This document shows positions 53,329 to 58,229 of a stretch of DNA of 64,000 bases, in pieces. A model generated the notes under the pieces. The model was not told the origin of the DNA. It ran no database searches and worked only from the letters and a program-made list of their open reading frames with translations. The position numbers were made by a program, and so were the translations under genes. Each line of letters begins with the position of its first letter. The first letter of the stretch is position 1. The stretch is from Trueperaceae bacterium (GTDB taxonomy: Bacteria > Deinococcota > Deinococci > Deinococcales > Trueperaceae). The stretch is from assembly GCA_965215565.1 (NCBI GenBank), contig CBDCDZ010000004.1:3776001-3840000 (forward strand). Direction: 5' to 3'.

Positions 53329-53628
53329 ATGATTAAAAAGCAACAAGTCAAAAGCCGCAACGTCTGCAAAGTCACCTTCGAACTGCCCGCCGACTTCGAA
53401 GCGGACGCCGTTCACCTCGTCGCGGATTTTACCGATTGGCAAGAGGTTCCTTTTGACAAGCAGAAAAGTGGTAAGTGGAAGCTGGTGCAAGAGGTGGAAC
53501 CCGGCAAAGACTACCAGTTCCGCTACCGCGCCCTCCATAACGACCACGACCACTACTTCAACGACCCCGACGCGGATAGCACTGTGCAGAATGACCAGGG
53601 GACGGAGAATGCGGTGATTAGCTGCTAG
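53329..53628 (+). CDS. Isoamylase early-set / CBM48-like domain protein
   Basis: CKVTFELP, VADFTDW and YQFRY...NDPDAD. Confidence 0.85.
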   Translation: MIKKQQVKSRNVCKVTFELPADFEADAVHLVADFTDWQEVPFDKQKSGKWKLVQEVEPGKDYQFRYRALHNDHDHYFNDPDADSTVQNDQGTENAVISC

Positions 53629-53687: not shown

Positions 53688-54005
53688 CTAGTCGCTGAAG
53701 CGAAAAGGGTCAACTGGAATACAAGCGTCTTCCAAGCACACCCAGATGTAGTAGTGGTCCACCTCTGCGCCGCTCACATCGGTAATGCTTTCATGCGTTC
53801 CCTCCTGCAAGTCGAACGCTAGCTCGCCGATCAAAGCAGCAGGAAGAATTGAGGTGGCGTCTTCGGTGACCTCACCTTTTATCATGATGTAAACGTCATC
53901 TTCTGGACGGTATTCCATCGTCTCTACTGCGACATCTTCTTCGCAGCCGAGAAGCGCGAATAGAACGAGGATAAAGGCTAAACTTCTGTAGGTTGTAATT
54001 TTCAT
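53688..54005 (-). CDS. Small lipoprotein ending in IPVDPFRFSD
   Basis: GGAGG RBS and lipobox LLG-C; 105 aa. Confidence 0.8.
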   Translation of the reverse strand: MKITTYRSLAFILVLFALLGCEEDVAVETMEYRPEDDVYIMIKGEVTEDATSILPAALIGELAFDLQEGTHESITDVSGAEVDHYYIWVCLEDACIPVDPFRFSD

Positions 54006-54060
54006 CTGTTCCTCCCTTGAACGAGACGAGATGTTGAGCACCTTTGAGCACGGTTGTGTA

Positions 54061-54990
54061 TTAGGGTTTCATCGCGCTCACCACCTCGAGAAACGCTTGG
54101 AGAATCTCGCTCGGGTAATGCCGACCTGCGAAGCGCGTGAGTTCAGCGATAGCTTCGTCGTGGTTCAGTGCGCGGCGGTAAGGGCGGTTGCTTGTCATCG
54201 CGTCGTAAGCGTCAGCGATTGCTACGATATAAGCTTCGGTAAGTATTTCTTCTCCAGATAAACCGTAGGGATAACCGCTCCCGTCGAGCCTCTCGTGATG
54301 CTGCTCGATGATGGGTCCAGCCTCTTTCATAAAGGTTCGTTCAACCATCTCTCGACCGAAGGTAGGGTGCTTTTTGATAATATCCCATTCCAAAGGTGTG
54401 AGGGCGGAAGGCTTATTGAGTATCTCTACAGGTACATCTACTTTTCCTACATCGTGTAGATAAGCACCATAATCGAGATAGTGGAGGCGATGATGAGGTA
54501 GTCCTAGTACTTTGCCTGCTTCGTAAGAGAGTACCTTCAAGCGACCACAATGGTTCGCTGTGTAACCGTCTTTCTGCTCGACCTCAACGGCGAGTTGCCT
54601 CAGCTCATGTAGTTCGCTGCTGATATGGTGAAAGAAAGGGTACGACGTGAGATATAAAAACTCGACGCTTGTCTCCGTAGTGAAAATGACGGGTTGCTCT
54701 AAATCTTCAGCGATGAGGTAGTCGCCAGAGTTTATTCTTAGTGGTCCTGTAGGCAAGTCACACCGCAACATACCTTTCAGAATGAAGTAAATTTCAGTTA
54801 CCTTGTTATCCTCAGCGGGCGTAAGTGTAATTCGCTTGCCGACTTTCATGGTTGTTCTTACTAGTTCGGCTGTAAGGCGGGTAGATAGAAGGTGAATTTC
54901 GCCCGTATTGGAGCGAGTGACCTCGAGGCTCTCCCCCTGCCGCTTCACACTCAAGCCTTTGGGTAGCGCAGGGATTTTTTCATCGGGCAT
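54061..54990 (-). CDS. HD-GYP cyclic-dinucleotide phosphodiesterase with N-terminal cupin-like sensor domain
   Basis: HDVGK, HHERLDGSGYP and RPYR; N-terminal EIYFILKG...SGDYL. Start uncertain (ORF track gives 55071). Confidence 0.9.
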   Translation of the reverse strand: MPDEKIPALPKGLSVKRQGESLEVTRSNTGEIHLLSTRLTAELVRTTMKVGKRITLTPAEDNKVTEIYFILKGMLRCDLPTGPLRINSGDYLIAEDLEQPVIFTTETSVEFLYLTSYPFFHHISSELHELRQLAVEVEQKDGYTANHCGRLKVLSYEAGKVLGLPHHRLHYLDYGAYLHDVGKVDVPVEILNKPSALTPLEWDIIKKHPTFGREMVERTFMKEAGPIIEQHHERLDGSGYPYGLSGEEILTEAYIVAIADAYDAMTSNRPYRRALNHDEAIAELTRFAGRHYPSEILQAFLEVVSAMKP

Positions 54991-55277
54991 AGAGAAACTA
55001 TACACACCTTTTGGGAATGTGATAGAAAAATGTGAAGTTGTACGTGTAGTTAGCGCGGTTGACCTCAACATCTCTTATCCCCTGAATAAATCTGTGTGGA
55101 TTTCGCGCAGAGAGTGATGATAAGAACGTGTTGCGCAGTCCTATGTTAAGGAATTCACCCTTTTAGAGATATGGAAAATTTAACACCTGTTTTCCCTGGA
55201 CTTCGGCGCGTTTTGCAAGTTAAGGTCATAACTGAAGTGACATTTTGCACTTCAGTAAGTTTGGAGAGGAGATAGAG

Positions 55278-55403
55278 GTGAAAACATTGCGAGTTTTAGT
55301 GGTTCTATTAACGCTTAGCGGTTTTGGCATGGTGCTGGCGGCGGAGTCGAACCCGCAGAGCGACGATACACCTGTGACGAATCCTTTTCGTTTTGACAAC
55401 TGA
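55278..55403 (+). CDS. 41-aa secreted peptide precursor ending in PVTNPFRFDN (not in ORF track)
   Basis: GAGGAG RBS and GTG start; MKTLRVLVVLLTLSGFGMVLAAESNPQSDDTPVTNPFRFDN. Has its own terminator. Confidence 0.8.
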   Translation: MKTLRVLVVLLTLSGFGMVLAAESNPQSDDTPVTNPFRFDN

Positions 55404-55421
55404 AAGCTGGCTTCAATAACG

Positions 55422-55453
55422 AAAGAGCGCACCTCAGCGGGTGCGCCCTTTTT
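55422..55453. terminator. Intrinsic terminator after the peptide gene
   Basis: GCGCACC-TCAGCG-GGTGCGC followed by CCTTTTT. Confidence 0.75.
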
Positions 55454-55478
55454 ACTTTCAAGCGGTTGAGTCAGGACT

Positions 55479-57728
55479 TTAGAACGTCAATACCTCTTCA
55501 TGCGAGCGTAAGCCGTCGGAGAAGGTTAGGTTTAAGGTGTTGCTCCGCGTTTCTAAAACAACCTCACCACTCTCGTCCATTGCTAAGACATTGCCTTGAG
55601 CGTCGCGAACGATCACGGCGTTGTAGGCGCTAACGTCCCAGGTGAGGGTTACTTTGCCGTTTGCGCGCTTCACTTCGGTCTTCTGCGCGGACTGCGTGCG
55701 GAGCGTCATGCCTTGCTCGGCGAGGACGTTGCCGCTACGCTCGACGCGCAGGCTTACGAGGTCACGCGCCTCACCTTCGCTGAGGGGCACGGCGAGGTTG
55801 AAACCGGAGAAGCTGTCAGTAAGGATGTCCGCTACGCTCTGGGTGCTGAAGGGCACATTGAAGAGGGTGCGTCCGGCGCTGTCCGTACCGATGAGGGTGT
55901 AAGGACCGGGTGTCGGGGTGTCGGCGGCAGCCTTTGCTCTAAAGACGGGGTTGAGCGTCACCGCGCCGCGCTCGACGCTGCCGCTCACGATGAGAGCGTT
56001 TTGAGGCAGGCTCTGGCTCCCTAAAGCTTGACTTTGAATGTTGTAGGCGTGGTTCTGGCGGTGCTCTAAGATGCCGTCGTAGGTGTAGTCGCTGATCCAG
56101 GCGGGGTTGCAGTAACCCATGATGTCGGCGTGGCCGCTCGGCGCTTTGAGGGTCTGCGTGCTCTTATCGAAGCCCCACACGCCGATCTGGCCCTCATCGT
56201 GCGGGTAGTGCTTGTCGCCGCTAACTTTGCAGGGCGCGTGGCTGCGGTTCCAGTTGTGACCTAGCTCGTGCGCCATGACCTTGCTGCGGCTTCCCGCTCT
56301 GTTCCAACCCACCGAGACGGGCTTGCCACCTACCCAGCCTACCCCCGCAATGCCGCTGCTGTAGCCGGGGGCCACCACGCCGTAGTAGAGGTCCGTGCTG
56401 CCGTCCATTGCGCGCAAATTCGTGAGTTGCGATAAGAGCGTGTTCCAGCCCCTATCGTTTCTCGCCTCTAGCGTGCCGCTAAAGGTGTAAGGCTCGTGGA
56501 CCGTGACGTTGATCTTGCTGAGCGGGTACATCAAGCGGGTCTGCTGCAAGAGGTCGTCTTGCGCTGCCTGGTCGAGCGTGGGCGCGCTGCCCCCGTAGCT
56601 TACAGGCACGAGCGTGAGGTTGAGCGTGGGCGCTTGCGTGACGCTGAGGGCGACGAAGCCCGAGGCGGGGTAGCGGTTGTTCGCTTCGTCGCGCTCAGCG
56701 ACTTCGTTGTCCGGGTCGATCTCCACCGCAACCCTGAGACCGGGGGTGATGAGCGCTTCGTCCAACATGGCGTTAAAGGTGCTGCCGAGGTCACCCTCGT
56801 CCGTTTGAGTGGGGACGCTCGCGGGACTGGAGAGGTCGAGGTGCCCTTCGACTTGACCGTTTTTGTAGTGAAGGCGCACGGTGACCTCTTGACTGTTGAG
56901 CTGATTCGCGCGGACAAAGGCGCGAACCAAACCTTCGCGCTCAGCGACGAGGGCGCGGCGCTCGTGGGGAGGGCGGTGCGAGTCCGCCGCTGGCACCGCC
57001 TGGTTGATGTAAAAGCGCTCGAACTTGAGGTCTAGGGTGGCGGCGTTTTCCACATCGCAGTCGCGAACAACCGTGAGGGTTGTGTCCGCGCCGCTACCGC
57101 TGATGCTCAGCTCGGCGCGCTCACGCTTGGGCTCGGTGCAGGGGCTGACGCTCAGCTCGAGCGTGTCGCTCTCGCCCGCGCCTAACGTTCCCGAGGCGCG
57201 CGCCGGGATGAGCCAGTCTTGACTGCTCGAGAGGGTGTAGTCGCTGCTCATCTGTCCGCTATTGCTGAGCGTGACGCTGCGCGTGACCGCTCGGCTGCTC
57301 ACGCTCTCCTGTCCGCTGACGGTTAGGGTGTGGGCGCTCAGCCACCACACGGGTCCTTCGTTCACGCCGCAGGCGAGGGTCATCGGAATGACTACGGTGG
57401 GGGTGGTTGCGCCGTCCGAGGTGACGGTGAGATCGCTTTGGAGCGTGCCCGCGTCGCACTGCGCGCTGACCTCTAAGGTGCGCGCTTGGTTGGCGTCTAA
57501 ACGCCCTTTGTGTGGGGTGACGCTGACGCGCGCGTCGCTGCTCTTAACTTCGAAGGTGAGGGGCGCGCCGCCCTCGTTGGCGAGGCGCAAGGTGGTGCCG
57601 GCGCTCGAGCTTGCCACAACTGGCTCAGCGAGCTTCGCTTCGATCACCTGGTTGTCCGCGCCGCCGCACGCGGCGAGCAGCGAGACGCAGAAAAATCCCA
57701 AAATGTGTAGAACGGTACGTGCGTGCAT
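55479..57728 (-). CDS. Lipoprotein zinc metallopeptidase (M66-like) with BACON/Ig-like domains
   Basis: Lipobox LAAC, AHELGHNWNRSHAPC and DIMGYC Met-turn. Confidence 0.85.
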   Translation of the reverse strand: MHARTVLHILGFFCVSLLAACGGADNQVIEAKLAEPVVASSSAGTTLRLANEGGAPLTFEVKSSDARVSVTPHKGRLDANQARTLEVSAQCDAGTLQSDLTVTSDGATTPTVVIPMTLACGVNEGPVWWLSAHTLTVSGQESVSSRAVTRSVTLSNSGQMSSDYTLSSSQDWLIPARASGTLGAGESDTLELSVSPCTEPKRERAELSISGSGADTTLTVVRDCDVENAATLDLKFERFYINQAVPAADSHRPPHERRALVAEREGLVRAFVRANQLNSQEVTVRLHYKNGQVEGHLDLSSPASVPTQTDEGDLGSTFNAMLDEALITPGLRVAVEIDPDNEVAERDEANNRYPASGFVALSVTQAPTLNLTLVPVSYGGSAPTLDQAAQDDLLQQTRLMYPLSKINVTVHEPYTFSGTLEARNDRGWNTLLSQLTNLRAMDGSTDLYYGVVAPGYSSGIAGVGWVGGKPVSVGWNRAGSRSKVMAHELGHNWNRSHAPCKVSGDKHYPHDEGQIGVWGFDKSTQTLKAPSGHADIMGYCNPAWISDYTYDGILEHRQNHAYNIQSQALGSQSLPQNALIVSGSVERGAVTLNPVFRAKAAADTPTPGPYTLIGTDSAGRTLFNVPFSTQSVADILTDSFSGFNLAVPLSEGEARDLVSLRVERSGNVLAEQGMTLRTQSAQKTEVKRANGKVTLTWDVSAYNAVIVRDAQGNVLAMDESGEVVLETRSNTLNLTFSDGLRSHEEVLTF

Positions 57729-57855: not shown

Positions 57856-57878
57856 TTACAGAGAACCGCTGTAACCCG

Positions 57879-57950
57879 TCCCGTCGGTTGCACCACTGGC
57901 TCCACTCATCCCAGGTGCCCAGATACGGAATGAGTTTCATCGCTACGGAA
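57879..57950 (-). ncRNA. c-di-GMP-II riboswitch
   Basis: Minus strand reads GTAGCGATGAA-ACTCATTCC-GTATCTGGGCACCT-GGGATGAGT-GGAGCCAGTGGTGCAACCGAC. It has a 9-bp stem, a GCAC/GTGC pseudoknot and the conserved TGAA, GGGCAC and GTGCAACC blocks. Confidence 0.85.
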
Positions 57951-58229
57951 ACTTTCTATAGGTATTAAAGCAGATGCGCCCCGAGGGGGTTGTGAAGTCC
58001 TTACGCCGTCAGGAACGAGTTAAAATTGTCATGTTGGGAACTAGACCAAGGTATCGTATGGATTCTGGTTGAAGCCACGACAAAAGGCATTCGCATTTTT
58101 CCGTCGTTTGCAAAAAGAGCGAGATTTCGTAACGGCGTCTCGTGCGGTGACTGTTAGAAGGTCATGCAACCGCTGCAGAACTTTGAACGCGCTCTACAAC
58201 CACTATACTTTAAGAGGTTCAGGTGAATG

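Follow-up and report, generated by a model that had tools for sequence, protein, structure and literature searches.

A cupin-HD-GYP enzyme gene flanked by genes for two predicted exported products with near-identical tails: a candidate peptide signal in two bacterial phyla

A cupin-HD-GYP gene flanked by the genes for a 41-aa propeptide and a 105-aa lipoprotein, the DP protein, forms a three-gene cassette that is real, conserved and apparently undescribed, and comparison of its sequences suggests that the exported tail is likely a peptide signal controlling a cytoplasmic HD-GYP enzyme in two distant bacterial groups. Directly established here are the genes themselves, their linkage in two phyla, the predicted folds and motifs, an Asp-Pro followed by a variable tail, and repeats of six residues; from these we infer export, release of a hexapeptide, Opp/Dpp import, binding in a metal-free barrel and the sign of the resulting effect. 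The cassette lies in a window of 64,000 nucleotides, the whole stretch of DNA that was analysed, and its features are collected in Table 1.

Table 1. Coordinates of the cassette features in the window
Feature	Position	Strand	Remarks
DP protein gene	53688..54005	-	105-aa lipoprotein, ATG start, lipobox LLG-C21, end IPVDPFRFSD
Asp-Pro and C-terminal hexapeptide PFRFSD, candidate ligand	53691..53711	-	from sequence; low-confidence coil in the model; tail length and variability
Shine-Dalgarno GGAGG of the DP gene	54011..54015	-	from sequence
cupin-HD-GYP gene	54061..55071	-	336 aa from the first ATG; probably 309 aa from ATG 54990
HD-GYP phosphodiesterase domain	54112..54573	-	HD, H, HHE, GYP, D and RxY residues intact
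N-terminal cupin barrel	54637..54978	-	without metal-binding histidines; invariant E42, E66 (309-aa numbering)
Shine-Dalgarno AGGAG of the peptide gene	55267..55271	+	six bases 5' of GTG
Peptide gene	55278..55403	+	GTG start, TGA stop, 41 codons; Sec-type propeptide (predicted); divergent from the HD-GYP gene
Hexapeptide PFRFDN, Asn before it, candidate ligand	55383..55400	+	from sequence
Intrinsic-terminator-like hairpin	55427..55456	+	between the peptide gene and a convergent 749-aa gene; probably shared

The cassette and its enzyme

A preliminary description of this DNA had proposed both the peptide ORF, with its ribosome-binding site and its PVTNPFRFDN end, and the lipoprotein ending IPVDPFRFSD downstream of the HD-GYP gene, and both stand as proposed (Table 1). 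The peptide runs from a basic and hydrophobic N-terminus through a polar stretch to its C-terminal tail; its Sec export is predicted from a basic start, a hydrophobic core and an AxA-like end, that is, by the crude rule (K/R, hydrophobic stretch, AxA) behind all signal-peptide calls here, with VLA|A as the predicted cut. The hairpin that had been taken for the peptide's own terminator was discarded as evidence for the ORF, because it sits between convergent genes and is retained in two congeners in which that ORF is destroyed. Contigs from two public runs, representing at most one sample, show zero sequence differences at the locus.

The shared end of the two exported products, likewise part of the earlier proposal, is confined to this locus: when the 302,323 six-frame segments of the 4.49-Mb genome were scanned for [DN]PFRF followed by zero to six residues at the segment end, a motif picked post hoc, the only two matches were the peptide and the DP lipoprotein on either side of the cupin-HD-GYP gene. 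The hexapeptides PFRFDN and PFRFSD differ at two positions, and the Asn-Pro of the peptide stands at the place that matches the Asp-Pro of the DP protein. In support of a hexapeptide signal, a genome of another genus (G005) combines a DP protein ending PFRFNE with a neighbouring propeptide in which PVTNPFRFS occurs twice in tandem; against it, both congeners have intact enzyme and DP genes but a destroyed peptide ORF.

On the DP side, a stand-alone gene for a CBM48 domain (99 aa, window 53329-53628, + strand) is convergent with the DP gene, and both congeners retain it. On the peptide side, the convergent gene (window 55479-57728, - strand) encodes a 749-aa lipoprotein that has BACON/Ig domains and an HExxH metallopeptidase of the M66/M12-like type. 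Ahead of the latter lies a c-di-GMP-II riboswitch (window 57873-57956, - strand; 65 bits, above the cut-off), and by these riboswitch and domain matches a putatively c-di-GMP-controlled exported protease adjoins the cassette. We considered this metalloprotease as a processing enzyme and set it aside; it adjoins the cassette within this genus only.

The enzyme probably starts at position 54990, because four close homologues measure 308-310 aa, and its sequence has no transmembrane stretch (maximum 19-residue hydropathy of 0.9), so that any signal must reach the cytoplasm. HD-GYP domains are described by the motifs HD, H, HHE, GYP, D and RxY, and these residues are invariant across 39 aligned members; the domain here matches Pfam HD_5 (E 1.7e-31), and its profile matches 5z7c and 4mcw with E below 1e-46. 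Its substrate is predicted to be a cyclic dinucleotide, most likely c-di-GMP, and the genome encodes 33 GGDEF domains. For the cupin, Pfam returned no match in the protein encoded at 54061-55071; Cupin_2 is matched by 10 of 25 aligned N-terminal domains of the family. The AlphaFold2 model (pLDDT 90) consists of an all-beta domain, a long helix and the HD-GYP domain, with Foldseek matching the cupin part to TM1459 and ectoine synthase (E about 1e-6) and the HD-GYP part resembling PmGH and DvhD. The model thus confirms the N-terminal domain as a predicted cupin double-stranded beta-helix barrel, and the two-domain composition given in the preliminary description is upheld. Cupin metalloenzymes bind their metal through His-x-His...Glu and His motifs; the barrel lacks this signature, with no conserved histidine among the aligned members and with E42 and E66 as the only invariant polar residues.

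Linkage in the source genome, the family and Bacillaceae

The source genome holds five full-length cupin-HD-GYP paralogues, four of which have a small signal-peptide ORF within 1.2 kb, as compared with none of the six other HD-GYP genes and with 17 of 1276 similar-size ORFs (1.3%) as background on the main contig, where such small ORFs number 27 altogether; this linkage favours the hexapeptide signal. The linked peptides are 41-43 aa long and end in KFRVNC, KYRVNR, IFRVNR, GFKISN (twice in tandem) and PFRFDN. At the fifth paralogue the peptide gene lies 2.9 kb off, past a divergent 811-aa ORF. In the clade of this paralogue (L111, L117-L119) the peptide gene is again found past a divergent ORF, of 765-873 aa, and its tail falls outside the hexamer pattern; it may belong with that larger ORF.

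The family surveyed, likely Trueperaceae, comprises 128 genomes, 34 of which match the cupin profile, as against only two weak matches in 181 genomes from other families of the phylum; a scan of a genome collection with one cupin query returned only two close relatives. The preliminary description tied the enzyme to flanking exported peptides at one locus, and the flanks of its homologues bear this out on a wider scale: a predicted exported partner (DP, small peptide or both) is present at 44 of 53 single-cupin HD-GYP loci, in a tally made by hand from which four fragmentary profile matches were excluded, and the linkage recurs in a second phylum. A DP gene lies directly downstream at 25 of the 53 loci, and 19 have only a peptide of 41-65 aa, predicted to be exported. 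The remaining nine lack a partner within 1.2 kb, which counts against a hexapeptide signal; four of them have a distant peptide, three are beside a Dpp/Opp-like operon and two (one truncated) have nothing. These three genes (L112-L114) lie 1-2 kb from the ABC transporter operon, named from the appearance of its sequence. Also on the negative side, no partner was seen at six tandem-cupin loci, several of them on short contigs; this subtype (L055, L057-L060, L070) encodes proteins of about 410-430 aa where complete.

DP genes occur in 28 of the 128 genomes, one copy each, and their placement speaks for the hexapeptide signal: 25 lie directly behind a cupin-HD-GYP gene, two follow an HD-GYP tail with which the contig begins, and one lies at a contig end. 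Three of the 25 DP loci also carry a small exported ORF, which leaves DP as the only partner at 22; one has DP fused to the enzyme frame, and at another the enzyme gene has an internal stop. The fused frame (L047:2481-3551, - strand) reads through cupin-HD-GYP and DP domain for 356 aa, with D-R in place of D-P, and comes from a genome that is 70% complete, so that it would be either a real fusion or an assembly error. At least three peptide-only genomes (G019, G025, G071) have no DP gene that we could find. On a quick receptor tree, the DP label requires seven changes and the peptide-only label nine, of which at least two and three, respectively, are forced by strong branches; the partner types are interleaved, and DP and peptide-only partners have therefore replaced each other more than once. 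Kin share partner labels, however, and the tree is thus no test of co-evolution.

We give almost no credence to the explanation that the peptide ORF is a random frame and the shared motif a coincidence: the absence of the ORF from two congeners and the post hoc choice of motif are what such chance would predict, but the motif is unique genome-wide, a two-copy relative exists in another genus, and small exported ORFs are enriched throughout the family.

The same linkage appears in Bacillaceae. Metagenomes searched with nothing but the DP alignment yielded 11 loci; at 10 of these the DP gene directly follows an HD-GYP gene (nine full cupin-HD-GYP, one clipped by a contig end), again in favour of the hexapeptide signal. 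One DP gene (L095), its start missing, has no HD-GYP neighbour and points the other way. Members of the metagenome DP clusters are named Neobacillus, Niallia and Cytobacillus, and all Bacillota counts rest on these 10 loci and two plasmid records. A Pontibacillus record has the enzyme gene followed by a 48-aa signal-peptide ORF that ends PVTLFN, close to the Bacillaceae DP tail PVPLYN. The exported neighbour in a Peptoclostridium record, 112 aa long and ending in IDP plus four residues, was aligned with the DP family by eye; at E 0.26 the homology is not significant, and we treat it as a lead only. No match was found in phage records, and a scan of viral contigs returned one weak match of 34 residues.

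Exported partners and their tails

The DP family consists of predicted exported proteins of about 100 aa (105 aa here, 93-107 aa in most relatives) with conserved positions D37, Q67-E68, H84, Y86, W88 and D99-P100, followed by a variable five-residue tail; the core is conserved across the family and the tail varied. Its members are annotated as 'hypothetical' or mislabelled '8-amino-7-oxononanoate synthase', and no Pfam, NCBIfam or PDB match was found. A profile search gathered 78 clusters at 50% identity, of which 76 keep the Asp-Pro near the end and two lack it, a count to be read with the profile's own preference for Asp-Pro in mind. Among 63 close homologues, 56 have exactly five residues after the Asp-Pro, as do 55 of the 78 clusters, which supports a hexapeptide unit; tails of other lengths (4-13 residues) in 21 of the 78 clusters detract from it. 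The DP model is extended, lacks a compact fold (pTM 0.58) and shows the tail as coil after a beta-hairpin (block pLDDT 62). Fold searches with it gave a best Z of 3.2 among 48,161 chains and no Foldseek match at E 0.001, and a search of the ESM Atlas with the DP domain returned nothing above 0.77.

The preliminary description cast the free peptide as the signal and the lipoprotein tail as a tethered version of it or a decoy. Although the tails do differ at two positions and both genes stand together at three loci, the proposal that the lipoprotein is a tethered decoy or antagonist fares poorly, and we hold it very improbable: 22 of the 25 DP loci have no other partner, the congeners have lost the free peptide, and a lipobox is present in only seven of 23 family neighbours and, by pattern, in two of 78 clusters. 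The lipobox is clade-specific, and most members have an ordinary signal peptide. Since the free peptide has disappeared from two congeners and the majority of members are not lipoproteins, we regard DP as the core partner; our best reading of these comparisons is that the DP protein would be the conserved source of the signal at the locus and the free peptide an additional, non-essential source of an almost identical signal.

PFRF itself, put forward earlier as the signature of the system, does not extend to the family, whose tails include FSYNY, INFSR, FRVNR, FKISN and PVILF. Several propeptides contain exact repeats of six residues (GFKISN twice, NGFTVT twice, KGAIAT about seven times), in keeping with hexapeptide signals, and a cut at D|P would release a hexapeptide, the same unit. 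Further support comes from an F or Y at the second hexamer position at 17 of 19 peptide-only loci (counted by hand) and from orthologous peptide genes, in which changes are mostly silent or outside the tail (silent/replacement codons 8/3, 14/10, 13/14, 7/23, 10/10 and 5/0). Peptides ending AHASVR, GAIATK and NQTTSR do not fit, and the VTNPFRF coding pattern is a real gene in only two of 128 genomes; a further match in G122 lies antisense inside a long ORF and was rejected as chance. Tails match within a locus in 4 of 38 cases, a rate that does not stand out from the cross-locus control (93 of 1310), which likewise argues against the hexapeptide signal. Three of the same-locus matches are meaningful; those in G000 and G005 represent one clade, and that in G150 is internal, weak and absent from its relative G151.

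Upstream of the peptide genes, c-di-GMP-II-type riboswitches were found at four of 20 loci scanned, a point in favour, and none was detected ahead of the peptide gene at 55278-55403, a point against. In a related observation, three c-di-GMP-II riboswitch aptamers, two in tandem, lie within 1.4 kb at G000:C4:2483145-2484498.

The DP domain, with its 80 folded residues and conserved positions, could equally act intact. In such a scheme the exported products would be co-regulated outputs: the DP protein would have a function at the cell surface that involves its tail, perhaps in an oligomer or as part of the matrix, and the peptides would be mimics of that tail under c-di-GMP control. A conserved core of its own and an extended, non-compact model (pTM 0.58) are what one would expect of an oligomer subunit, and the riboswitches do place some peptide genes under c-di-GMP control. 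Still, 19 loci have a peptide with no DP gene beside it, G019, G025 and G071 are without any DP gene found, the tail is the variable part and follows the receptor clade, and hexamer repeats in tandem are in line with the release of a free peptide; we accordingly rate this alternative as rather unlikely.

Proposed route of the signal and comparison with known systems

On balance, we lean slightly towards a scheme in which hexapeptides from the exported products are released, re-imported and bound by the cupin, tuning cyclic-dinucleotide hydrolysis. The propeptide and the DP protein, both ending in near-identical hexapeptides, would be exported and would lose this hexapeptide once outside the cytoplasm. 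In the DP protein the simplest site for this cut would be D|P, where the protein may cleave itself; in the 41-aa peptide it would be N|P. The hexapeptide would then return through an Opp/Dpp transporter (the genome encodes six Opp/Dpp-type binding proteins) and bind the metal-free cupin barrel of the neighbouring cytoplasmic HD-GYP enzyme, changing the hydrolysis of a cyclic dinucleotide, most likely c-di-GMP; at some loci, riboswitches would close a feedback loop. A complex prediction with two cupin copies and the last 30 propeptide residues scored 0.01 and counts neither for nor against this scheme; the chain used there still included some signal-peptide sequence and did not correspond to the mature hexamer.

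The enzyme could instead monitor secretion, and not cell density, if the tail of an unexported precursor bound the cupin in the cytoplasm and Sec export removed that precursor. The cytoplasmic enzyme and the C-terminal tail, predicted to be flexible, would suit this mode of action, as would the lack of a dedicated protease or importer gene conserved beside the cassette. Multi-copy precursors and the fixed Asp-Pro distance nevertheless point to processing, three partner-less enzymes adjoin a Dpp/Opp-like operon, and the variety of tails within a single genome hints at separate channels, all of which makes secretion monitoring improbable in our view.

Returning to released and re-imported hexapeptides, a bolder version, offered only tentatively and with more doubt than belief, would see here a peptide communication family unrelated to RRNPP, in which hexapeptides form a code read by a metal-free cupin that in turn controls a c-di-GMP phosphodiesterase. 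Its original source would be an exported domain that cuts itself at Asp-Pro and frees its last six residues, Phr-like propeptides would have replaced that domain several times, and up to five channels per genome would operate in Trueperaceae and in culturable Bacillaceae.

The closest parallels are the RRNPP(A) systems (Rap-Phr, NprR-NprX, PlcR-PapR, AimR-AimP), of which Rap-Phr is the model for the layout; they share with the cassette a small propeptide, predicted here to be of Sec type, adjoining a cytoplasmic protein of 250-500 aa, a short variable C-terminal peptide and multi-copy precursors. PMC10075063 gives their criteria as a propeptide of 10-100 aa, Sec export, a TPR receptor of 250-500 aa and adjacent genes, and PMC9765709 reports multi-copy propeptides as common for AimR, NprR, Rap and PlcR, along with some predicted SPII-exported propeptides on mobile elements. 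Here, the propeptide has 41 aa, the receptor candidate 309-336 aa, and both partners are direct neighbours (44 of 53 loci in the family), which gives agreement on three of five criteria, with Sec export plausible. The cupin-HD-GYP protein, however, has no TPR family match in Pfam and its model leaves no room for a TPR array, and because of this the cassette is no RRNPP member. It further differs in that the candidate sensor is a cupin barrel without TPRs, a cyclic-dinucleotide phosphodiesterase provides the output, where RRNPP(A) receptors bind DNA or inhibit response regulators, a folded Asp-Pro domain of about 100 aa is the main precursor, and the cassette is found in Deinococcota as well as Bacillota.

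Among HD-GYP enzymes with N-terminal sensors (PmGH 4mcw, PA4781 4r8z, DvhD 9rbz/9rc0, V-cGAP3 5z7c), the intact metal ligands, the GYP motif and a sensor joined by a long helix are shared, but none of these structures matched the cupin part of the enzyme. Their sensors, which we take to be GAF, REC and PAS domains (the title of 9rc0 names PAS), are to our knowledge not known to read a cognate peptide; V-cGAP3 also illustrates that an HD-GYP substrate can be cGAMP. As regards the presumed release point, Rhs proteins are self-processing and FlhB and RsgI are cleaved at Asn-Pro. FrpC is reported to carry a self-processing module of the Asp-Pro type (PMC7846742). What the DP protein shares with such proteins is that Asp-Pro (or Asn-Pro) is conserved where release is predicted, which we regard as analogy only. 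No profile or fold match to Asp-Pro self-processing modules was found, though homology may exist; in contrast to them, the piece released here would be a hexapeptide. In titles and abstract openings, with subscription papers and supplements outside the search, no cupin-HD-GYP protein with a peptide partner is described, and 'HD-GYP' and 'cupin' are absent from the main texts of PMC10075063 and PMC9765709.

If the tails are ligands, peptide-based cell-to-cell signalling would be linked directly to c-di-GMP turnover through a receptor fold invisible to TPR-based detectors, cytoplasmic peptide sensing would extend to Deinococcota, and a family of at least 78 sequence clusters would gain a likely role. 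With candidate ligands of six residues and adjacent accessions in cultured species (Neobacillus cucumis WP_251571157.1 and WP_251571158.1), the claim is open to a test with synthetic peptides.

Small signal-peptide ORFs also occur elsewhere in other settings. Those at G000:C4:971776-971874, 2808488-2808586 and 2853565-2853747 have good ribosome sites, no cupin-HD-GYP gene within 1.2 kb and, at one of the three, GGDMT/GGMMT repeats. At a further locus outside the window (L120, G000:C4:1212104-1216240), an HD-GYP protein of 676 aa is accompanied by a subtilase (Pfam S8) and by a divergent signal-peptide ORF of 42 aa; the N-terminal part of the subtilase carries tandem GRSNVWAG repeats and the 42-aa ORF ends in the same motif, so that one motif again recurs in both a free peptide and a larger neighbour.
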